In this document: piece after piece, positions 3,199-15,489 of the stretch
Layout of the letters: each line of letters opens with the position of its first letter
Position numbering within the stretch: position 1 is the stretch's first letter
DNA from: a bacterium
GTDB lineage: Bacteria > Hinthialibacterota > Hinthialibacteria > Hinthialibacterales > Hinthialibacteraceae
DNA: 64,000 bases
Assembly (NCBI GenBank): GCA_963662285.2
Contig: CAXXMV010000001.1
Span: 672,001-736,000 of the forward strand
Direction of reading: 5' to 3'
Made by a program: the position numbers and the translations under genes
The notes under the pieces: model-generated
Database searches by the model: none
What the model was told of the DNA's origin: nothing
What the model saw: the letters and a program-made list of their open reading frames with translations, nothing else

Positions 3199-3351
3199 GG
3201 CTTGGTAATCGCCCTGGCAGAACCTTCTGCTTTCGCTTACCAGCCCCGCCAAGGCAGTTTTTTGTTTGCACGGATTCTCACCGTGTCGGGGATGGAACTG
3301 GACTCCTTGTATACTCCTGAACGATTCGCACCGTCCAGATCTGATATTTGG

Positions 3352-3470
3352 GAGTACTGCACAAACGAAAACCCCTGTTGTTTTTCCTGTTGTTGGGGTT
3401 GTTCCTGTTACGATTTGCAGAACGGCAGTTCCTGGTGTTGTTGTTCCAGCTGCCGCCCCGAAGAACCCTG
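3352..3470 (-). repeat. DGR template repeat (TR)
   Basis: 119-bp ungapped match to 4990-5108; AAC-rich on minus strand (reads [39 protein letters not shown]); 24 mismatches at TR adenines. Confidence 0.97.
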
Positions 3471-4541
3471 AGCGTCCATCCCTTCTACTCGTTGGAAAAC
3501 CAACGGGCCTATTACTTTTTCCCGCAACCGCCAACTATCTGCATGAGATACATGAGCAATCCAACTCATAATTCGTTGTTTTGCATCGTTTAAGTTTACT
3601 TCTTCATTGCTATACGCTTTTTGCAATTCTCTGAATCTGCTTCTGGCTTTCTGTACATTGCCAGAGACAACGCGAACATAATTTTGAAATACCCTGTATC
3701 CCAAGAATGTTATACCTTTGGAAACTGAGAAAATTTGGCTCTTGATTGGATGGATAATCAATCGGTTATGCTCTAGAAATCTTTCAATTTGAATACGCCA
3801 TTCTTGTAATTGTTCTTTGGAATCAGATAAAAGTACGAAATCATCCACATATCGTAAATAAGTCTCACATTTCAATGTTTCAATTACAAAATGGTCAAAT
3901 GGATTCAAGAAAATATTGGCGAAATGCTGGCTGGTCAAATTACCGATGGGAATGCCGCGACGGCGTTCGATATGAGTAAAAAGGTCGTCACTTGGGAAAT
4001 ACTCCACGATTTCTTCTTGAGGATTACTGGCGTCAATGATGGTATCCAGGAGCCAAAGTGTATTGGGACACTTGATCTTTTTTCGCAATAATCCTTTGAG
4101 AATTGCATGATCTATGCTGGGAAAATATTTTCGGATATCTGCTTTGAAAACATAGTTATATCTTTTGGCATAATACTTTAGGGCTTGTATGGCCCGATGC
4201 GTTCCATACCCGTTTCGGTTAGCGAAGGTTTTGTTCGTGTATGTGTTTTCAAATATGGGCATCACTATTTGGCAAACCGCGTGATGGATCACTCTATCCC
4301 GGTAAGGCGCGGCGGAAATGTAACGTCTTTTGGTATCGAATACTTCAAAGCAGGTATAATCCCCAGGCCAATACGAATGATTTAGAAGTTCTTGCTGAAG
4401 TTTCATAAGATTCTTTTCCAAATCGTAGTTAAAGCGAAGCACTTGGTCATGATACCGCTTACCCCGTTGAGCGTTTTTTGCGGCGCGAACCAGGTTATCC
4501 CAGGTTACGATTTGAGAGAACAAGTTACTATGTCTTTTCAT
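3408..4541 (-). CDS. DGR reverse transcriptase
   Basis: [33 protein letters not shown] (DGR-type SQ motif), YLRYVDD and FLGY; 377 aa with no maturase or endonuclease extension. Confidence 0.97.
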
Positions 4542-4885
4542 GCTGACCTTCCCTGTTGCCGCAGCCAGCCGCCCAGCATGGAGCCGATTTCATTCATATT
4601 GACGCTGGCGAATTCGTATTGGCGGTTGCTGAAAATATTGAAATCTTTGAGAAGGCGGGTTTGAAATCGAATGACCTCCAAATCCACGTTCAGTTTTCGT
4701 AATATTTCGTTCCGTGCGCGACTATACCTTGCCTGGATAAGGCCTTCCAATAGACCATAAAGCAACGATGTCATCCTATTTCCCAAACCAAAGCGGTGAT
4801 CCCGCGGCATGCGGTTTAGATGGGGTATATACCATAGAATCAAATCGTAAGTTTTTTGTATGATGGGCAGTTCTTTTTCGCTCAT
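4538..4885 (-). CDS. avd: DGR accessory variability determinant Avd (four-helix bundle)
   Basis: 115 aa; ELPIIQKTYDL, PRDHRFGLG and EIGSMLGGW motifs; stop overlaps RT start (ATGA). Confidence 0.93.
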   Translation of the reverse strand: MSEKELPIIQKTYDLILWYIPHLNRMPRDHRFGLGNRMTSLLYGLLEGLIQARYSRARNEILRKLNVDLEVIRFQTRLLKDFNIFSNRQYEFASVNMNEIGSMLGGWLRQQGRSA

Positions 4886-4913
4886 TCTTATATACTCCCA
4901 AAAAAAATCGCGT

Positions 4914-4926
4914 CGGGCTTCGCCCG
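4914..4926 (-). promoter_or_regulatory. DGR target-recognition hairpin candidate (CGGGC-GAA-GCCCG)
   Basis: GC stem with a GAA triloop about 60 bp downstream of the VR stop codon, as expected for DGR homing hairpins. Confidence 0.65.
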
Positions 4927-4984
4927 CATTTTAAAATGGAAAAAATTTAAATGGCAAATGGTAAAATAGTAATATACCAAATGG

Positions 4985-7525
4985 CTACTGAGTCCTGCAC
5001 AAACGAAAACCCCCGCCGTCCCTCCCGCTGCCGGGGACGCTCCCGCAACGATTCGCAGAACGGCAGACCCAGGTGACGTAGTACCAGCTGCCGCCCCGAA
5101 GAACCCTGTACGAGCCAGAACTTGCACCTTCAGGATCATTGTTTGGAGAATTGGCATAATAATTGCTATCATACCAATCATTACACCACTCCCACACATT
5201 GCCGCTCATATCAAACAGACCAAATTCATTTGGTAATTTCGTTCCGACTTCATGGGTCTTTGATCCCGAATTGCTAGTATACCAGGCATAATCGCCAATA
5301 TTTCCATTTTCCCAATAATAATCTGTCGTTGTTCCTGCCCGGCAAGCGTATTCCCATTCAGCTTCTGTTGGCAAGCGAAAAGTCCCATATCCCATCTCAT
5401 TCAGTTTTTGAATAAAGGTCTGGCAATCATTCCAGGAAACTTGTTCTACTGGATGGTTGTCTCCACTGAAACGTGATGGATTGCTCCCCATCACCGCCTG
5501 CCACTGCGCTTGGGTCACCTCATACATCCCCATATAGAAATCTTTAGAGATTGTAACCTCATGAATCGGTTTTTCATCTGAATCACCAGAATTACTACCC
5601 ATATCGAAAGTACCCGCCGGGATTTTAACCATAACCAGTTCCTTCGCCCCGGCGGGGAGAGTTAGGGAAATGGTTTCAGTTTCTTTGTTTTCTGCTGATT
5701 TCAGAACTTCCTGCACCGCATAATAGGCGGATTTGGCATTGTAATTGTCATCGAATAGCAATGGAGTTCCCCAGCCGGGATAGGTTTCGGGAATCCAGGT
5801 ATACTTGTCTGTGAATCCCCACATGATTAATCCCGTACAATTATCCGCTAATAGACAAGCATCTAATATGCTGGCATAGATATTCGCTTGCTCGTCTAGC
5901 ATTGCTTGCGTTGCGGGCTGCTTCAGGCTGACATCCAGTTCTGTAATCTGGCATTCCACACCAATCTCTGCAAAACGATTCATATAAGCGATTAAATCAA
6001 CGGATGATGGCACTGGGGCAGGAGCATGGATTCCAGTGGATGGATCAGACGCATTGACGCCTAGATGCATTTGCAGCCCGACGCCGTCAATGGGAACGCC
6101 ATTTTCTTTGAGCGCTTTCACCAGATCATAGATTCGTTCCGATTTATCCCCCAAACCTTCCGGATCGTAATCGTTGTAGAACAGTTTAATGTCAGCACCG
6201 ATGTTTGATGCGGCTACGTAAGCATACTCAAAGGCCAACTCGACATATTCAGCACCAATCTTATCTGCCCAGAACGAATTTACACTGTTATCGTCTACTT
6301 TAGAACTTAGCCTAATAACAGGATTATCCACGTAATCTAACGCCAAATCTCCTTGATCGGGCACAGCCTCGTTTACCACATCCCAAATGATAACGCGTCC
6401 GGGAAAGTTATCAGCGAAGTGTGTGACGACCGTCTCAATATAACCATGGAGAAGAGCAATTGCATCGACCTTATCTAATTCAACCTGATGTTTCTCAAGC
6501 CACGATGGAAGATTGTTGTATTTCGGGTTGTGCCAAACCAGGGCATGGCCCCGCACATGCATGTCATTGGCGGCGGCGAACTCGACGATTGAGTCTGCAT
6601 CTCCCCAGTTGTAGTCTGAGGCAGTGATGTTTTCCCAGTTAATGTTTGGGTTATACAACAGCGCGTCCATCTTCATCTCATTTTCAGGGGTGATGATGTT
6701 AAACTCACGCGCCAGCGTAGCCTTGTAGTTCTGGTCGTTCCATGGGGTGTTTTGGATAGTTCCGTTACTGTTCCAGGTATTCATACGGATTGAAGAGCCT
6801 ATTTTGAAGTTGGCTTTGTCAGCGTAGGTGCGCAATCTTTCACCATCAGGCTCTATAACTAAAATTGAAGAATTATTCTCATCGGGAACTATACTAATTG
6901 TATTTGGATCATCCCCATCGCCATCCAAAAACGCGCCGTCGTAATATCTACCTGATTCGAGGAGATAGACGTCAAAGTTATCGATGTAAAAAGTTACCGT
7001 TCTACCGCTGTTTTCAGGATTGTGAAGCTGGATGAACGGATCGAATCCCAATCCCGGTGGAACAAACAAAACAGAAACCTGTCTCCATTTGTTGTGAAAT
7101 TCAGATAAACCCGCCGGGCTGTTGGTGGGCACATCGATAGAACCGCTTTTCCCAATCGCCCCTATCGTGATAGAGCCTTCAGTGCCGTCCATTCTTACAT
7201 TGCAGCGAATCAGGGCAGCGTTGATTGCGTTAAACGATTTATTAAAAATCATAACGCCTTCGCCCGGATCGGCGGTGACGCGAACCCCAATCCCATCCGT
7301 AGCGCTCTCGAATGAGTTGTTCGTGGGTATTGTCACGCCAAACTGAACATCGGCTAAAGGTAAAGCGCCAAAACCAGCGCCTTGTATTGTTATGCCATTG
7401 GCTGCTGCGGATTTACCAGCAAAATCAATACGTATAGGATCATCCTGGGCATAGATAGTCTGACATAATATAATACTAATAAATACATATAACACATTCA
7501 CGAATAAATTCTTCATAATAATCAC
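4985..7525 (-). CDS. DGR target: secreted protein with N-terminal unknown domain, GH10 (endo-1,4-beta-xylanase-like) domain and C-terminal FGE-sulfatase/CLec domain
   Basis: Signal peptide; GH10 motifs TPENEMK, RGHALVWH, WDVVNE, YNDY, GLQMH, ITELD; FGE-like motifs F.MGS, EVTQAQW, RLPTEAEWEYACRAG, DMSGNVWEW, RGGSW...GFR. Confidence 0.93.
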   Translation of the reverse strand: MIIMKNLFVNVLYVFISIILCQTIYAQDDPIRIDFAGKSAAANGITIQGAGFGALPLADVQFGVTIPTNNSFESATDGIGVRVTADPGEGVMIFNKSFNAINAALIRCNVRMDGTEGSITIGAIGKSGSIDVPTNSPAGLSEFHNKWRQVSVLFVPPGLGFDPFIQLHNPENSGRTVTFYIDNFDVYLLESGRYYDGAFLDGDGDDPNTISIVPDENNSSILVIEPDGERLRTYADKANFKIGSSIRMNTWNSNGTIQNTPWNDQNYKATLAREFNIITPENEMKMDALLYNPNINWENITASDYNWGDADSIVEFAAANDMHVRGHALVWHNPKYNNLPSWLEKHQVELDKVDAIALLHGYIETVVTHFADNFPGRVIIWDVVNEAVPDQGDLALDYVDNPVIRLSSKVDDNSVNSFWADKIGAEYVELAFEYAYVAASNIGADIKLFYNDYDPEGLGDKSERIYDLVKALKENGVPIDGVGLQMHLGVNASDPSTGIHAPAPVPSSVDLIAYMNRFAEIGVECQITELDVSLKQPATQAMLDEQANIYASILDACLLADNCTGLIMWGFTDKYTWIPETYPGWGTPLLFDDNYNAKSAYYAVQEVLKSAENKETETISLTLPAGAKELVMVKIPAGTFDMGSNSGDSDEKPIHEVTISKDFYMGMYEVTQAQWQAVMGSNPSRFSGDNHPVEQVSWNDCQTFIQKLNEMGYGTFRLPTEAEWEYACRAGTTTDYYWENGNIGDYAWYTSNSGSKTHEVGTKLPNEFGLFDMSGNVWEWCNDWYDSNYYANSPNNDPEGASSGSYRVLRGGSWYYVTWVCRSANRCGSVPGSGRDGGGFRLCRTQ
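4990..5108 (-). repeat. DGR variable repeat (VR) with IMH at 3' end of target gene
   Basis: Encodes [39 protein letters not shown]; differs from TR at 24 adenines plus one non-A site (4994) near the 3' end. Confidence 0.97.
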
Positions 7526-7643
7526 CTTTTTGAGATAATTTATAAACGCCTAACAAATTAGATCGTATTTGAACTGTATAATCAAGTGTGCTCCTTATTT
7601 TTGCGCTTGAGTGGATAATAATTCGATTTATCCAAAATCAATT

Positions 7644-7967
7644 TCACAGCAACCCTTTTACCCACATAATACAATTTTCAACGATTCCAAAGGTGGCAAG
7701 GATGATTGGTTTGACTTGTTCATTCCGCATTGCATATTCAAGCGCCCACAATGTTAGAATCGAATAAATGATTGTTAGAATCTTTATGATCAGTATTTCT
7801 TCCACTATGCGGCGGCATTTGGCGCGGAAGGGCAGTTCACGGAAGGTTGCTTTTCGGCGGCGGGGCCGAGGGATGAATACAATTTCCCCATACTGGTTAA
7901 CCTCATAGTCTCCCCGGCGATCATTGGTCGGCATGGTTCCAAGAGGACTTTGATACAATCGAGCCAT
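7644..7967 (-). CDS. Small membrane protein, last gene of E2-JAB-E1 operon
   Basis: GGAGA RBS, 18 bp after E1 stop; N-terminal DYEVNQYGEI, basic stretch and 1-2 hydrophobic segments. Confidence 0.75.
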   Translation of the reverse strand: MARLYQSPLGTMPTNDRRGDYEVNQYGEIVFIPRPRRRKATFRELPFRAKCRRIVEEILIIKILTIIYSILTLWALEYAMRNEQVKPIILATFGIVENCIMWVKGLL

Positions 7968-7985
7968 CTCTCCATCTCCTTTGGA

Positions 7986-9191
7986 TTAAAAGACTGTTTC
8001 GTGAGGCTTTAATGAATCCCATATACATTCTGGATCATCATCGGGTATTTCATCACATAGCATGGCAGGTTCCGAGTATTCAGGATTTCGCTTATTCTGG
8101 CAGATATCACAATTTGATCGCGGCCCGACAAAGCGCGTAGGGAAAATATCAAACGGTTTCTGAAAAGGATCATGGCCTTTGCAAAACGCTCCGCCAACAA
8201 ACCAAAAACAGCGGTCAGGATTTACAATCTGTGCATAGGCATCGTTGTGATTGCGCAAAAGAACGCCCAAGGCTATCTGGGCTTCCAGACTGGACACAAA
8301 GTTGACGGCTGCGTGCAAACCCGGCTGACCTTCATAATCGTCCCGGCCAGTTGCAGTACTATAATCAATGGGACCGCGTTTCTGTTGGACGACTACGCCT
8401 CCACCTTTTAAGCAACATAGGCAGGGCGTTTCCCATTCGGGAACATAAGCGAAGACCTCGCCGCCGATAGCATTTTCATAACAACCACCAAACACGGCGG
8501 GTGTTCGATGGTTTACCGCCCATTCATTGACCATAAGTTGAACAGCCAATATATCGGTGGATGCGATAACCAGACTGGATTGGGTAAACAAATCGTACAT
8601 AAACGTATCTGAATCGTCTTGAAAGATATCCCGTGGATAGCATTGAACCTGAGCATTGGGGTGAATATCCATAATCCGGTCTTTCACAACGGAGACTTTG
8701 TTGCGTCCAAGATCGCTGAATCCCCCTTCATGCCGCGAGAGGTTGGAGGCTTCCATCGTATCAGGATCAATCAAGATAAAATTCCCAACTCCAGCACGTG
8801 CCAATTCCAGGGCCAGGTAACTACCGCCAGTTCCACAACCGAAGATGGTTACAGTGGAATGTTGTAGAGTCTTCAGGCACGCAGGATCGAAGGGAGTCCG
8901 CGCAAACACATCATGATCTTCAATTACCTCAACCTGTGTGAGTGAAAGATGATTCTGACTCCAAATGAAAACCTTGGGCTGCGATGAGTGTGCGAAGACA
9001 AATAACCAGGGAGACTGGGGAGGCGTTGGAATTGCCTCTCCCCGGTGCAAGACCTGTCCAATTACAGATCGGTCGTGCGTCATTTCAGGAGCGCAGATAT
9101 GAGCCGTGTTTTCCTCTTCACGGATAACGCCATGAATCTTCATACCCGGTTTTAACTGCGACAGTGCGTGAGACGAAATAAACACTCTCAT
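7986..9191 (-). CDS. ThiF/E1-like adenylyltransferase with N-terminal extension
   Basis: IFGCGTGGS, LARAGVG, IDPDTMEASNLSRH and GRNKV motifs; CLCC and CDIC zinc pairs. Confidence 0.92.
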   Translation of the reverse strand: MRVFISSHALSQLKPGMKIHGVIREEENTAHICAPEMTHDRSVIGQVLHRGEAIPTPPQSPWLFVFAHSSQPKVFIWSQNHLSLTQVEVIEDHDVFARTPFDPACLKTLQHSTVTIFGCGTGGSYLALELARAGVGNFILIDPDTMEASNLSRHEGGFSDLGRNKVSVVKDRIMDIHPNAQVQCYPRDIFQDDSDTFMYDLFTQSSLVIASTDILAVQLMVNEWAVNHRTPAVFGGCYENAIGGEVFAYVPEWETPCLCCLKGGGVVVQQKRGPIDYSTATGRDDYEGQPGLHAAVNFVSSLEAQIALGVLLRNHNDAYAQIVNPDRCFWFVGGAFCKGHDPFQKPFDIFPTRFVGPRSNCDICQNKRNPEYSEPAMLCDEIPDDDPECIWDSLKPHETVF

Positions 9192-9197
9192 GATAAT

Positions 9198-10094
9198 TCA
9201 CCCATATTGGACGAGCGCTGATAGGGATTTTCTCATCCGACTATACTGCTGAATCGCTTTAGCTATCGATTCTCCCACTTGACGCTGCATTGGAATAAAA
9301 CGGTTACGCCACGCTCCATAACTTAATTCGATTAACAATTCTTTCGGCTTACTTTTATCAGATAAAACGTAAGCATAATGCTCTGCGCCCCGCTTTGCAT
9401 ACAACGCTGCATATTTGGCTTTGCCCGAATAAAAGACTGTTGTTTCAAAGCCATGAGCATTCATCTCTGATGTTTCGTCATCAATGAAATGTTGGAATGT
9501 AGAATGTATATCTTCTGGTATGGCAAATACATTTGATACAGAACAGGGTGTGGATGATTCGATTTTAAGTGATTGCGCAATATCTTTATGGGTGTCTTCG
9601 ACCCAGTGCAATTGCAAAGGATCGAAACCAGTCAGGTCTTTGCGCAATTCATAGGCGCAAATCCGCCATCCCTGTTTCCCCTTTTTATGATTCATTGTTA
9701 CTATGAATGACAAGAGGGGGCCAATTGAAAGATCCCAGCCGTCTTTTTGCACCATACGCACGGCTTGACGTAGATCGCCCTTGCTGGGCGTATGAAAGGA
9801 GCCTGGGTGTTTATGCCAGTATCCCAGTACATGAACCCTGTTCTGATGATGCCATTTGATGATATTGAGCAGCAGTTGATCGAATTCTGCATCGTTTGAA
9901 CAATGGATAATATCAAGATCCGAATTCGGACCAGCAGGAAAGGCATAGAGCAGCGCTGGATCAGAGCAAGTTCCAACCAGCAAACCGACGGTCTCCTGGT
10001 TGAGGTTTTTGTTGCATTCCGATTCGATGACGGCGAGACAAGACCAGGATGCAGGCATCACTTTGGCGAACAAAGGAATCGAGAGAATATTCAA
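9198..10094 (-). CDS. JAB/JAMM (Mov34/MPN) metallopeptidase with C-terminal extra domain
   Basis: ETVGLLVG and WHKHPGSFHTPSKGD match the E...HxHx7Sx2D JAMM motif. Confidence 0.88.
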   Translation of the reverse strand: MNILSIPLFAKVMPASWSCLAVIESECNKNLNQETVGLLVGTCSDPALLYAFPAGPNSDLDIIHCSNDAEFDQLLLNIIKWHHQNRVHVLGYWHKHPGSFHTPSKGDLRQAVRMVQKDGWDLSIGPLLSFIVTMNHKKGKQGWRICAYELRKDLTGFDPLQLHWVEDTHKDIAQSLKIESSTPCSVSNVFAIPEDIHSTFQHFIDDETSEMNAHGFETTVFYSGKAKYAALYAKRGAEHYAYVLSDKSKPKELLIELSYGAWRNRFIPMQRQVGESIAKAIQQYSRMRKSLSALVQYG

Positions 10095-10097
10095 CGA

Positions 10098-10529
10098 TCA
10101 AGCCCTCCTTCGCAGCAGAGGGTTGGATGATTCCCGCTGATTTTCCCATTTGTTGCCATCTGGCCAATGTTTGGTTCGGCGATACTCCTCATACGACCGT
10201 ATCCATCCACAAGCCCAATCGAGAATCACTTTACCGGACGTTTGAGGCCCAACATCATCAACCCCCCACAAACACAAACGACCATCGCCAAACATGTGGG
10301 GAGCAGGATTGATGCGGGGCGATGTAATGACAACTTCGGGGTGATCGTAGGGAAAACGGTCGGGATAATACATCATTATATTGTACAGTTTCCCTTTCCA
10401 GCGGAATTTCAGATAGACCTCTATCCTCCCTTTGCGTTGAGATATGCGGGTATTGGGATAGACCTTGTTGATTAAATTGGTTTCAAGCCGTAAACGTTCA
10501 GGCAGACGTATATACCAAGGTTTCATCAC
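10098..10529 (-). CDS. Prokaryotic E2 (UBC-fold)-like protein
   Basis: RLRLE helix, YPDRFPYDHPEV and PHMFGDGRLCL (His plus presumptive catalytic Cys, UBC-like spacing); AGGAGGTG RBS. Confidence 0.82.
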   Translation of the reverse strand: MMKPWYIRLPERLRLETNLINKVYPNTRISQRKGRIEVYLKFRWKGKLYNIMMYYPDRFPYDHPEVVITSPRINPAPHMFGDGRLCLWGVDDVGPQTSGKVILDWACGWIRSYEEYRRTKHWPDGNKWENQRESSNPLLRRRA

Positions 10530-12630: not shown

Positions 12631-15489
12631 TCAATCGTATAACAACGGCCCTCCGAGCGCCTCGAATGTTCCGGTTATCTCTGAACAGCGCTTTCCATCT
12701 TTGGTTATGATTTCTACGTTTAAGGTATAATGTCCCGGCGTGATTTTTGATGAATCCAGGATGAGCAGGCGGCTGGCTGTTAAATCCTGTTCAGTGCGGG
12801 ATAGAATTTTTCCTTGATCGTTGATAAGGCTTGTTTTAATTTTATGGCCGCCCGGTTTGATGGAAGAGACGCCCAATACCTCAAAAGAGACAGGTAAGTT
12901 TGAATCGGGCAGCATCACGAAACGCGGCGCCTCAAGCCGGGATATCATCGGAGATGTGAAGCGCAACAGTTTCACTGATCCCACGTCAACAGTTAGATCA
13001 GCGCCATGTTTGTAATCTCCCTCTGAAATATTTAATTGGACTTTGGATATGGTTTTCCATGGCGCCGCTCCCATGCCGGTGGATTTGATCATATCCTGCA
13101 CTGAAAATTGGACTGGAATCCATACGCGCTGCCGGTCTCCCAGGTCTCGCATGCTGGAGAAGAACTGGCGTTGTTTTTGGTGCGAGCCGATTAAAAAATT
13201 CAGTGGAGTTGAGTCGTCATCCACTTCGTCGCGGTTGGAATCAACCCGGACTTTGAATTCAAGATAATCATAGGAACTCATATCGAGCGCATTTTCGCTG
13301 AAATCCCGGTGTACGCGGGGCCATCCGACTGGATATTTGCCGCCTTCACCGCCGTCCAAGTTATGATCAACCTTTACCCGCCAACGAAGGCCTTTGGCGC
13401 CGTCCAGTCCGGCGGCGGTTTTAACCTCAGCCATTCCTTCCTTGGTGTCATTACGCCACTTGGTGAAATCGTCGCTGAGGTCTTTGGCTTCCAGTAGGCC
13501 TTGTTGCATGGCCTGATCAAGGATTGATGGCGCGTCCGAAGCATGCGCGGGGGATATTTGAGATATCAGCACGGACGGCGCAACGGCGTCATTGGTTGCT
13601 GGATATTGCAATAGGGATTCAATCATCAGAGCCAAACGCCAGCGCCGGGCATTGAATTCTTCTGAGGGCCACATGCCATCCGCCAGATATTTCTGTTGAA
13701 CTTCAATCGCGTCCCATGTCTCCTGCAACAACGCTTTGCCGGATTCCACCAGACTGCGACATTCTGGATCACGCGAGTCTACACGCTCACACACCGCCTG
13801 CTGAAGAGTGTAGATATAGCGGGCGTCATCGCGTCCTTCGCGGAAGCATTCCCAATAAACTGCGGGAATTACTTCGCCATCATCGCCGATGCGCTGGCCG
13901 CAGCCCGAACGGCTGCCGCGTAAGTAATCAAACTGATCAGGAGAGGGCGTCCAATTCCAGTTCCAGGGAATAAGGGTGGTGTAGCCGCTCCTCCAGAAGC
14001 CAAAGCCGTATGTCATTCGACCGCCTTTGCACATGACGCGGCGGTCTTTGATCTCACCAGCATTGTGATTGGGGTAGCACCAATACTCATAGCGTTTTTG
14101 GGCGATGATCTTTTCATAGGGCATTGAGTATGGTTGGGAACACCAGATATCAATATAGGGCCGGTAAGGTTCAGCATCGGCGGCGATGGGATTTTTGGTG
14201 GCGTAGGTTCGGACGCCAGCGTCATGCACCGCCTGGTACACCCGCCAACCGAACTCCTTATGGGAGGCGGCTACTTCGTCGATGGGGCAACAGATCACTT
14301 CCGGCCAGCCTTTGGCGCTGCATTCCTTCTGGAAGGATTTGAAAAGCGCTGTGACCTTTTCATAGAACTGCGGCGGGGGCATCTTGCTGATTATCCAGTG
14401 GTTTTCCCGTTTTCCGTCAGGAGTAGTTTCTTGATAAATGCGTGACATGACGCCGCCTCCAGTGACCGGAAGAGGCCCCTTCATACCAGCGGCCAGCATG
14501 CGCTCAAGTTCCTCTGCATTGCTGACAATGATCTTCTGGTTTCGTTCATCGGTTCGAAGAGAGAATGTCGGAAGCATGTCAAGACCGTACTCGACCATAG
14601 TACGGTATTCGTTGCCTGTGGCCTTGTTGATAAAATCTTCGTCTTTTCCTTTGTATTGCACGGAGTTTCGCACATAGTAATAAGACGAGTAATGTTTGTT
14701 CGGATCGGATTTCAACTTGAAGCCAAGCACCCGAAGCGCGAGCGGTATCTCAATGGCTTTATCGAAACCATCATCCCACACCGTTACTTTACCCTGGTAA
14801 AGACCGGGTTTCGCATCTTCCGGTATATGTATTCGAATCCACCAGCGCTGACATTCACCAGCTGGCGATGAGTGAACCGTGACGTGTTCCAGCAGTTCCG
14901 GGGTTCGTCGGTATGCGTCCCGCGAAGTGTAGCGCGGATAACCTACGTTCCAGTAAGTCACTAAACGCGCCGTAATCTGAGAAGCATCAATCACGCTGCC
15001 AGGACCATTCAGGGCGGAGACCTGAATCCGGAAATTCTCCAGGTTACGTACCGGATAAATGCTGAAGGTAACCGGCTCAAATTCGCCCGCCGCACTGAAG
15101 GCAGTGAGATATTGAAGCCGTTCGTGATAAAGGGGCTGTGTGTTGGGATGCACCGGCTCGGTGATGGGACGTTGAAAAAGCAGGTAACCGCGCTGTTTTT
15201 CAATTGCGGTCAGTTCCGGTTGGGGCGCGTTCGCAGTAAATGGCAATTCCCGGTAGTTCGCTGGAACGGTTGGCTGCGTCCGCGCCCGCAGGTCAGATTG
15301 GGCGCTGGCGGGTTTGGGAACATGGTGAATCGATGGCGCCGCATCCGGGATTGCTTGCTTTGCGCCCAGACCAAATGATAGGTACAGGCCAATAATTAAC
15401 GGGATTATCACTCTGCATCCGACGCGCACATTAAACATTTTATCCTCCATGCAAAAGTAGTTCGCTGTCAATTGGAACTGATATCTCAT
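12631..15489 (-). CDS. Large secreted putative glycoside-hydrolase-like protein (true start probably downstream of 15489)
   Basis: Signal peptide after MFNVR; GEFEP, DE and WECFREGRDDARY motifs resembling GH123/DUF4091-like proteins. Confidence 0.55.
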   Translation of the reverse strand: MRYQFQLTANYFCMEDKMFNVRVGCRVIIPLIIGLYLSFGLGAKQAIPDAAPSIHHVPKPASAQSDLRARTQPTVPANYRELPFTANAPQPELTAIEKQRGYLLFQRPITEPVHPNTQPLYHERLQYLTAFSAAGEFEPVTFSIYPVRNLENFRIQVSALNGPGSVIDASQITARLVTYWNVGYPRYTSRDAYRRTPELLEHVTVHSSPAGECQRWWIRIHIPEDAKPGLYQGKVTVWDDGFDKAIEIPLALRVLGFKLKSDPNKHYSSYYYVRNSVQYKGKDEDFINKATGNEYRTMVEYGLDMLPTFSLRTDERNQKIIVSNAEELERMLAAGMKGPLPVTGGGVMSRIYQETTPDGKRENHWIISKMPPPQFYEKVTALFKSFQKECSAKGWPEVICCPIDEVAASHKEFGWRVYQAVHDAGVRTYATKNPIAADAEPYRPYIDIWCSQPYSMPYEKIIAQKRYEYWCYPNHNAGEIKDRRVMCKGGRMTYGFGFWRSGYTTLIPWNWNWTPSPDQFDYLRGSRSGCGQRIGDDGEVIPAVYWECFREGRDDARYIYTLQQAVCERVDSRDPECRSLVESGKALLQETWDAIEVQQKYLADGMWPSEEFNARRWRLALMIESLLQYPATNDAVAPSVLISQISPAHASDAPSILDQAMQQGLLEAKDLSDDFTKWRNDTKEGMAEVKTAAGLDGAKGLRWRVKVDHNLDGGEGGKYPVGWPRVHRDFSENALDMSSYDYLEFKVRVDSNRDEVDDDSTPLNFLIGSHQKQRQFFSSMRDLGDRQRVWIPVQFSVQDMIKSTGMGAAPWKTISKVQLNISEGDYKHGADLTVDVGSVKLLRFTSPMISRLEAPRFVMLPDSNLPVSFEVLGVSSIKPGGHKIKTSLINDQGKILSRTEQDLTASRLLILDSSKITPGHYTLNVEIITKDGKRCSEITGTFEALGGPLLYD

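Follow-up and report, generated by a model that had tools for sequence, protein, structure and literature searches.

The question raised by this locus is whether a diversity-generating retroelement (DGR) can be put to use in aiming an enzyme. DGR targets are mostly read as binders, such as phage receptor-binding proteins, adhesins and sensors. The element described here is a minus-strand DGR cassette spanning positions 3211-7525 of a 64,000-nucleotide stretch of a bacterial genome (contig CAXXMV010000001.1, positions 672,001 to 736,000; the whole stretch is called the window below). [quoted passage not shown] The reading favoured here, to which we give a probability of about 0.6, is that the DGR is active and varies the surface with which a lectin module binds, a working GH10 enzyme being tethered by this module to changing ligands.

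A complete DGR with a single target

The repeat finder returned one 119-nt pair, consisting of a template region (TR) and a variable region (VR) (Table 1). Compared on the minus strand, both copies differed at 25 positions, 24 of which were TR adenines (17 A>G and 7 A>T), meaning that 24 of the 37 adenines of the TR were altered in the VR. With random placement, the chance of 24 given mismatches all falling on A would be about (37/119)^24, roughly 7e-13. The 82 non-adenine positions showed zero differences except for a marker close to the 3' end, T in the TR and G in the VR, located five bases from that end within a stretch that resembles an initiation of mutagenic homing (IMH) sequence. The first and last substituted positions of the VR were 5083 and 5014, respectively, a span of 70 nt.

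When read in the frame of the target, the TR contained 12 AAC codons and one AAT codon. Among its 23 adenine-bearing codons, one alone (AAA) was able to mutate to a stop, and the upper bound on the number of protein variants encoded by the VR was about 1.6e20. The VR sits at the 3' end of the target gene, inside the C-type-lectin fold. The whole 7.29-Mb genome was searched with the TR as a pattern in which every A was free and up to six other mismatches were accepted, and only the TR itself and this VR were returned. Therefore, the DGR has one target. A paralogue in the same genome (L013, G000 C1:443973-446258), with a 762-codon frame that encodes Lectin_C and CLec domains, has a CLec 73% identical to that of the target. 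Its 3' end is TR-like with 29 mismatches, 16 of them at A, so the differences are not adenine-specific; this gene may be a former target of the DGR or a gene-conversion partner of the present one.

The cassette is arranged in the order target with VR, avd, reverse transcriptase (RT), TR and an RNA resembling the Rfam motif RT-14, and avd and the start of the RT gene overlap by 4 nt. The Avd protein scored 126.4 bits against the NCBIfam model DivGenRetAVD (NF033474; cut-off 80), which places it at equivalog level. The translation of the RT carries IGNLTSQ and YVDD, so that the catalytic YxDD motif and a motif of the [ILV]GxxxSQ type are both present; the latter is a hallmark of DGR-type RTs. 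The enzyme was classed by its RVT_1 match and these motifs, the NCBIfam matches to other RT classes all lying under their cut-offs, and its relatives were 63%, 51% and 48% identical. The last 21 codons of the RT (63 nt, 3408-3470) are TR sequence, as the RT frame runs into the TR. This extension is probably incidental, because the RT and TR of a relative (L027) overlap by just 8 nt.

The open reading frames (ORFs) of the target, avd and RT were all intact. The initial annotation of this DNA had reported VR, avd, RT and TR as present and intact, and all of them were found so on the minus strand at the coordinates of Table 1. The locus is thus a complete TvpA/CLec-type DGR, whose one target carries an enzyme domain.

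A second RT is encoded elsewhere in the genome (G000, contig C8:1292124-1293044; 27% identical, 438-codon frame). An adenine-specific repeat pair was sought over ~17 kb upstream and ~19 kb downstream of it, and none was found; a diverged tandem repeat block lies nearby, at C8:1288458-1290181.

Table 1. Coordinates, strand and supporting evidence of the features of the DGR cassette and of the domains of its target
Feature	Position	Strand	Evidence
DGR target gene	4985..7525	-	ORF list, translation, Pfam GH10 + FGE-sulfatase
N-terminal beta-sandwich of the target, residues ~27-225	6851..7447	-	AF2, Foldseek; CBM/MAM-like fold
GH10 catalytic domain, residues ~225-606	5710..6852	-	Pfam, 1xyz alignment, Foldseek
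FGE-sulfatase-type C-type-lectin domain, TvpA-like, residues ~619-846	4988..5671	-	Pfam, PDB 2y3c
VR, 119 nt, target codons 807-845 of 846	4990..5108	-	Repeat finder, TR alignment
Invariant 3' end of the VR, IMH-like, 24 nt	4990..5013	-	Same as TR bar G (VR) / T (TR) at 4994
Hairpin with a short G+C stem (CGGGC-GAA-GCCCG), T run after it	4914..4926	-	Centroid structure
avd, 115 aa	4538..4885	-	PF22296 (bAvd) E 1.7e-22; NF033474
DGR RT, 377 aa	3408..4541	-	RVT_1 E 2.4e-24; PADLOC RT model E 1.6e-50
TR, 119 nt	3352..3470	-	Repeat finder; 37 A
Structured RNA, RT-14-like (RF02921)	3211..3356	-	Rfam match beginning within the last TR bases

Signs of activity

The locus was also present in short-read contigs from two runs (X1 and X2) of one sample. 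In run X2, the contigs forked at the mutable stretch, one of them ending at 5013 and another starting at 5084, and the fork was bridged by two pieces spanning 4984-5113. As the outermost substituted positions of the VR are 5083 and 5014, the fork coincides with the segment that the DGR can mutate. The first piece was identical to the window at a depth of 5.7, and the second had 19 differences and one gap at a depth of 3. We regard this fork as suggestive of VR diversification. The alternative piece carries a 1-nt deletion at 5038 that would put the last ~17 codons out of frame. Given the depth of 3, this deletion may reflect an error or a VR allele with a frameshift.

An opposite interpretation would be that of a DGR recently silenced or already fossil, with a frozen VR and a protein acting like any other modular xylanase, its lectin module being fixed. 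The single VR of the assembly and the contig of run X1, which crosses the VR unaltered and without a fork, are compatible with such a state. However, all the ORFs are intact, no decay is seen at the 82 non-adenine positions bar the conserved marker, and run X2 holds a second version of the VR, so that a fossil element is considered improbable. From these sequence features, the DGR is probably currently active.

The target combines a GH10 domain with the diversified lectin

The target frame has 846 codons when counted from a GTG at 7525. An ATG at codon 4 (base 7516) is the likely start, which gives a protein of 843 aa, and the protein database entry P0002 corresponds to this form. Its residues 1-22, the signal-peptide region, were modelled as one hydrophobic helix (helix residues 2-22), and in family relatives the N-terminal domain (N-domain) begins near residue 25; the target is predicted to be secreted.

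The Pfam family Glyco_hydro_10 (PF00331) was matched by residues 258-606 with an E-value of 7.3e-87 (291.9 bits versus a cut-off of 22.1), and the match of this domain to PDB 1xyz_A had an E-value of 1.6e-66. The motifs ENEMK, GHALVWH, WDVVNE, YNDY, LQMH, ITELD and WGFTD were all aligned with 1xyz and 1vbr. Retention of both catalytic glutamate motifs, as proposed in the initial annotation, was confirmed, since WDVVNE and ITELD are present in the translation and aligned to WDVANE and FTEID of 1xyz. We take the glutamate of WDVVNE to be the acid/base and that of ITELD to be the nucleophile, and ENEMK, GHALVWH, LQMH and WGFTD to hold conserved -1 subsite residues. The model of the domain, with pLDDT values mostly of 85-97, is a (beta/alpha)8 barrel, for which Foldseek gave TM(target) scores of 0.89-0.93 to GH10 structures (0.92 to 3niy/1xyz). 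On these grounds the GH10 domain is likely to be catalytically competent.

The C-terminal domain was matched by the Pfam family FGE-sulfatase (PF03781) over residues 632-843 (E 7e-52) and by the structure of Treponema denticola TvpA (PDB 2y3c; E 1.2e-38), in an alignment that continued through the VR-encoded C-terminus. A fixed pair of catalytic cysteines, as in an FGE, is lacking, and the domain is a member of this family by fold, not as an enzyme. In the only candidate pair, one cysteine (codon 827) corresponds to a mutable AAC in the TR; therefore, the domain is interpreted as a binding module and not as an FGE enzyme. The Pfam assignment and weak NCBIfam matches to PvdO, EgtB and GldK, far under their cut-offs, could be taken as signs of a working formylglycine-generating or related oxidase in place of a lectin. 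This is hardly credible, as an active site has to stay fixed and cannot be reconciled with a hypervariable face, one of the candidate cysteines is encoded by the VR, and the best solved relative is the binding protein TvpA, which according to Wu et al. 2018 lacks FGE activity.

The N-domain had no Pfam match. Its AF2 model, built with a 40-sequence alignment (pLDDT 89.7), is a beta-sandwich for which Foldseek retrieved from the PDB carbohydrate-binding modules (CBMs) of the families CBM61, CBM4, CBM22, CBM15 and CBM16, and equally MAM and toxin domains, with E-values of 1e-5 to 1e-6, TM scores of 0.4-0.63 and 9-18% identity. As modelled, the N-domain is CBM-like in fold only. Because of this fold, the layout of CBM-like domain, GH10 and binding module resembles that of ordinary modular xylanases.

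The fusion is present in independent assemblies

The junction between GH10 and CLec (~5632-5710) was spanned without differences in both runs, by contigs covering 5306-7600 in X1 and 5306-6181 in X2. Therefore, the fusion was independently confirmed, and the chimeric GH10/FGE junction that the initial annotation had named as one possible refutation was not borne out by the data.

The short-read contigs of both runs ended at 5306-5324. The region 5295-5335 is a 41-nt exact repeat, common to the paralogue L013 at C1:444286-444326, 233 kb away, and it is responsible for the break of the contigs at this point. A chimera could also be imagined here, in which the 3' end (4985-5294) came from another CLec gene, the repeat having served to fuse it wrongly to the GH10 gene; it is the only exact repeat of at least 31 nt in the gene and the place where the contigs of both runs halt. 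This is very improbable: the window is part of a 1.25-Mb contig of an 8-contig genome, for which a 41-nt repeat is trivial, the depth is similar on either side (11.3 and 12.5), and a single relative, P0241, is similar to the protein at either end (N-domain 61-68% and CLec 48-49%, with a shared C-terminal GGFRxCRTQ). Such a chimera would in any case leave the fusion of GH10 and CLec untouched, as contigs run across it.

The target belongs to a lineage-restricted family

The N-domain was detected in 25 out of 25 other genomes of the families f1-f3, usually in several copies each, and in none of the nine genomes from the remaining families of this 35-genome phylum. When 1.84 billion representatives were searched with a profile, only 462 proteins were retrieved at E<=1e-3. 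A domain scan was carried out on 62 rows, which comprised the best 60 of these 462 (including P0002), P0241, and P0002 again as first row. FGE-sulfatase was carried by 37 of them, and GH10 by the protein of the window only. The common form of the family is a protein of ~460-600 aa with N-domain and CLec. P0241 (489 aa), without GH10, is 61% identical to residues 6-219 of the target and 49% over residues 623-846. The middle domains of longer members were VWA, Lectin_C, L-type lectin and CarboxypepD_reg.

An orthologous DGR was found in a genome of a sister genus (G011), with an RT 63% identical and a TR 87% identical to those of the window, just 3 of the 15 TR differences being at A. Its VR, located via the TR, lies on a separate contig, where it forms the 3' end of the gene for a family member of 1505 aa, and 16 of the 17 TR/VR mismatches are at A, with the same T/G marker. 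Both DGRs have the same cassette and 3' marker and a target with the family N-domain (42% identical) and a C-terminal CLec (46%). However, where the target of the window has GH10, that of G011 has an L-type lectin as its only recognised middle domain, no recognisable enzyme and ~750 unassigned residues. In related DGRs, 21 of 23 (G032) and 23 of 25 (G020) mismatches were at A, each with a single-base 3' marker at the same place. As to other related targets, the contig of G006 ends at the cassette, and that of G032 holds only the last 126 target codons.

From this family context, this DGR lineage diversifies one scaffold family, and the GH10 domain is a payload peculiar to this genome. By sequence comparison, the target is a member of a lineage-restricted N-domain-X-CLec family, with GH10 as one payload on a conserved scaffold. 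It is possible, rather than probable, that signal peptide, CBM-like N-domain and hypervariable C-lectin form a conserved display scaffold with swappable payloads, here a working GH10.

The FGE-sulfatase/CLec domain is also greatly expanded in G000 (29 ORFs) and its relatives, with up to three copies per protein; examples in G000 are C8:1036267-1042611, C8:1305534-1307558 and C2:1386860-1389679. Its partners in 10 of the 29 FGE ORFs of G000 scanned include BNR_2 (sialidase-like), KAP NTPase, Lectin_C and HZS_alpha.

The same context gives rise to a different view of the target, as a surface adhesin or receptor of the N-domain-X-CLec family that is diversified for attachment or for interactions with other cells, particles or phages, the GH10 domain being an accessory. 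It is consistent with the lineage-restricted and multi-copy nature of the family, with the confinement of GH10 to the protein of the window and the other middle domains found elsewhere, and with the orthologous target of G011. An attachment role has been proposed for TvpA and most cellular targets, and the main text of Roux et al. 2021 describes cellular targets mostly as membrane-anchored binders of extracellular substrates. On the other hand, all the GH10 catalytic and -1 subsite motifs were kept, and this would not be expected if the protein served binding alone. We judge this view unlikely, with enough in its favour to be taken seriously, and the same holds for its corollary, by which the GH10 domain would be a glycan-binding or local matrix-trimming payload and not the thing aimed. 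Both views overlap, as tethering an enzyme is a form of adhesion. Because the other middle domains of this adhesin-like family are binding modules, the 'retargetable xylanase' is one of two live readings. Therefore, of the earlier proposal of a xylanase-like enzyme with a retargetable module, the complete DGR and the GH10+CLec target were upheld, whereas retargeting shares its place with attachment.

DGR-linked fusions of glycosidase and lectin appear rare among the best matches

The searches for similar fusions provided best-match lists, not enumerations of domain architectures. In the search with the whole protein, the best 120 of 7472 matches were mostly multi-copy FGE proteins and so were uninformative on fusions. 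In that with the GH10 region (top identity 40%), PF03781 was found only in the protein of the window among the best 120 of 209 matches. Pattern scans with residues 4-625 provided 80 metagenome and 57 genome loci of the nearest GH10 relatives. Over the full domain these 137 loci were at most 41% identical (two short partial matches reached 49%), none matched the N-domain, and tblastn of their 6-kb flanks detected CLec, RT, Avd or N-domain in 0 of 137. In relatives of the same family, GH10 is encoded by stand-alone genes, which have 361-374 codons and are 45-47% identical.

The ESM Atlas returned only clusters of GH71+FGE proteins (77 and 54 members, Lentisphaerota / Verrucomicrobiota, with scores of 0.82 and 0.81, to be read at lead level) and nothing further when GH71 was skipped. 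In another phylum, that of G061, 30 GH71 loci were taken from 401 genomes, and 12 of them (L228, L230-L233, L236-L242) held fusions of GH71 with a C-terminal FGE domain (815-966 aa). Of the genomes with these fusions, 7 out of 10 had no DGR-like RT at E<=1e-10, and in the three RT-bearing ones nothing TR-like was shared between the RT locus and the GH71 gene. Two of these three RT loci have their own local TR/VR. In the third (G213), the RT is cut short by the end of its contig and a TR is not visible, which makes it a weak test. GH71 was found in 0 of the 35 genomes of the phylum of the window, but the control genomes also gave none.

Like the target, the GH71+FGE fusions unite in a single protein a glycoside hydrolase and, C-terminal to it, an FGE-type domain. 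They differ from it in the glycoside hydrolase family, in a more distant CLec (E 1e-10 to 5e-29) and in having no link to a DGR. As they recur without DGRs, the FGE-type lectin recurs as an accessory module of glycosidases, and may be one so far unrecognised. DGR control of a glycosidase-linked FGE-type lectin was found in this cassette alone.

The literature basis consisted of the available texts of PMC5758913, PMC8144416, PMC11661182, PMC7443923 and PMC5737381. In what is available of Wu et al. 2018, 13 appended-domain compositions of FGE-type targets are listed, including protease-related and kinase ones, in a catalogue described as unsaturated; the word 'hydrolase' has 0 occurrences in its main text. 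No glycoside hydrolase target appears in the main texts of Roux et al. 2021 and PMC11661182, and in the available text of PMC7443923 DGR and glycoside hydrolase terms both occur, unrelated to each other. Among the papers listed by full-text searches on DGRs together with glycoside hydrolases or xylanases, none had a title or abstract on such a target, supplementary target tables being outside the scope of this search. Since enzyme-bearing FGE/CLec targets are already catalogued, the target is a new composition and not a new principle. Mechanism and variable fold are known and enzyme passengers have precedents, and it is the composition of the target that is undescribed.

Regarding the unusual use of a DGR claimed in the initial annotation, no second GH10+FGE protein was met in the best-match lists, and enzyme-bearing FGE targets as such are precedented. 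The check on the frequency of the architecture that it had asked for gave a similarly divided answer, as GH10+FGE was not met again, whereas GH71+FGE recurs in the 12 loci mentioned above without DGR linkage.

RNA elements of the cassette

The RT-14 match covered the full-length model with 39.3 bits, corresponding to an E-value of 0.014 over 12 kb and of 0.0007 over 601 nt. In a relative locus (L031, genome G020; RT 38% identical), RT-14 was matched at 1187-1340 with 62.4 bits, above the gathering score, and likewise directly 3' of the TR. In the available text of Weinberg 2017, RT-10 is placed between TR and RT in BPP-1, and a DGR role of other RT motifs is presented as speculation only. With this position, RT-14 probably acts at the 3' side of the DGR RNA, for priming or as a scaffold, in cassettes with the TR after the RT. 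RT-14, so far an orphan reverse-transcriptase-associated motif of Rfam, thereby gains a likely role as the 3' element of this RNA. Just past the TR of the orthologous DGR (L026 949-1225; G011:C79), there are three tandem 92-nt G+C-rich units, with none in the window.

The hairpin between target and avd, 64 nt past the VR, has a 5-bp stem and a GAA loop, and it was not called by a terminator scan.

Genomic neighbourhood

Directly upstream of the target there is a minus-strand operon with genes for an E2-like protein (10098-10529), a JAB protein (9198-10094) and an E1/ThiF protein (7986-9191), which match the PADLOC models E2, JAB and E1-E2; a hydrophobic ORF of 107 aa (7644-7967) comes next. 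This region (7644-10529), in which neither a cyclase nor a ubiquitin-like gene was recognised, may be a defence-type ubiquitin-like conjugation system. On the TR side lie the C-terminal part of a UvrD/PcrA-like helicase (3-1118), a protein with DUF932 (1173-2102) and a small one with DUF1375 (2620-2940). These genes and those for E1, E2 and JAB may represent an island. Further away, a 952-aa ORF (12631-15489, minus strand) with weak matches to the GH123 N-terminal domain adjoins a ceramidase-like ORF and a C69 peptidase, which suggests a glycan- or glycoconjugate-degrading neighbourhood.

Discussion

The DGR of the window can be placed among known systems. It shares with that of T. denticola its cellular nature, an FGE-type C-lectin and a VR at the extreme C-terminus of the target. 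In contrast, the solved TvpA chain has 294 residues and aligns with the CLec alone, whereas the CLec of the window is the fourth module of an 843-aa GH10 protein, and the cassette differs in its order target-avd-RT-TR and in the RT-14-like RNA. The BPP-1 DGR (mtd-avd-TR-brt) likewise has RT and Avd and adenine-specific TR/VR changes. As in the window, it has an invariant 3' end with TR/VR marker bases. However, the BPP-1 element belongs to a phage and acts on a tail protein that binds receptors, and its TR lies before the RT with RT-10 between them, whereas in the window the TR lies after the RT and the RNA is RT-14-like.

The target resembles modular GH10 xylanases (C. thermocellum XynZ, 1xyz; Xyn10B/Xyn10C with CBM22) in its GH10 barrel and motifs, and its N-terminal beta-sandwich resembles CBM22, CBM4 and CBM61 in fold. 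Unlike them, it has a DGR-diversified C-lectin as its C-terminal accessory instead of a fixed CBM, and its N-module belongs to no Pfam family and is common to non-enzymatic proteins. A comparable class of targets is category 'b' of Wu et al. 2018, with a C-terminal FGE-sulfatase domain holding a CLec1 VR and with appended domains.

By homology to the BPP-1 and Treponema systems, an RNA holding the TR and the 3' structured element would be copied by RT and Avd with misincorporation opposite adenines. The resulting cDNA, guided by the T/G-marked invariant 3' end, would take the place of the VR, and rewriting would be confined to the last ~40 codons of one gene. Catalysis would thus stay constant while the VR-encoded ligand-binding face of the lectin samples up to ~1e20 sequences. 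The enzyme would be tethered to changing glycan or surface ligands by what amounts to a hypervariable substitute for a CBM. Current activity of the DGR, secretion, xylanase activity and a binding that aims the enzyme are all inferred.

Several observations weigh against this interpretation. The GH10 domain has loop insertions, the largest of which (~18 residues) comes right after the acid/base glutamate and was modelled with low confidence. The domain also sits on a long branch (1.01 versus a median of 0.2) in a tree of 44 rows, of which 39 were outside matches (P0122-P0160) and five were of this lineage, with an unresolved base. Because of the long branch and the insertion, its substrate may differ from xylan. 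The middle domains found elsewhere in the family are binding and not catalytic modules, which agrees at least equally well with an adhesin role. The alternative VR piece was seen at depth 3 in one of the two runs of a single sample and has a 1-nt gap, and its 19 differences are known as a total, without their placement on adenine positions. The last 100 codons, which bear the VR, are joined to the rest of the gene by the 1.25-Mb contig of the window itself. With regard to the RNA elements, the RT-14 match in the window is under the Rfam gathering score (39.3 versus 48.1 bits), and the 125-nt stretch around the hairpin folds no better than shuffled sequences (z -0.87). Of the intact hairpin described in the initial annotation, the G+C stem is thus present, but neither the folding comparison nor the terminator scan supports it.

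If an active DGR does aim a working GH10 enzyme through its lectin module, the target would be a self-retargeting glycanase, whose targeting module is continuously re-evolved in vivo, and this DGR would be the first shown to serve polysaccharide degradation in place of adhesion, infection or conflict. The coupling of a hypervariable lectin with a polysaccharide hydrolase that is intact would add nutrient acquisition or matrix remodelling to the biology of DGRs, and would offer a natural template for the in vivo evolution of enzyme-targeting modules. Given the GH71+FGE fusions without DGRs, the FGE-type C-lectin would also be nominated as a CBM-like module. For the family itself, the swap of payload between GH10 in this genome and an L-type lectin in its sister genus is a concrete case of DGR targets gaining functions.

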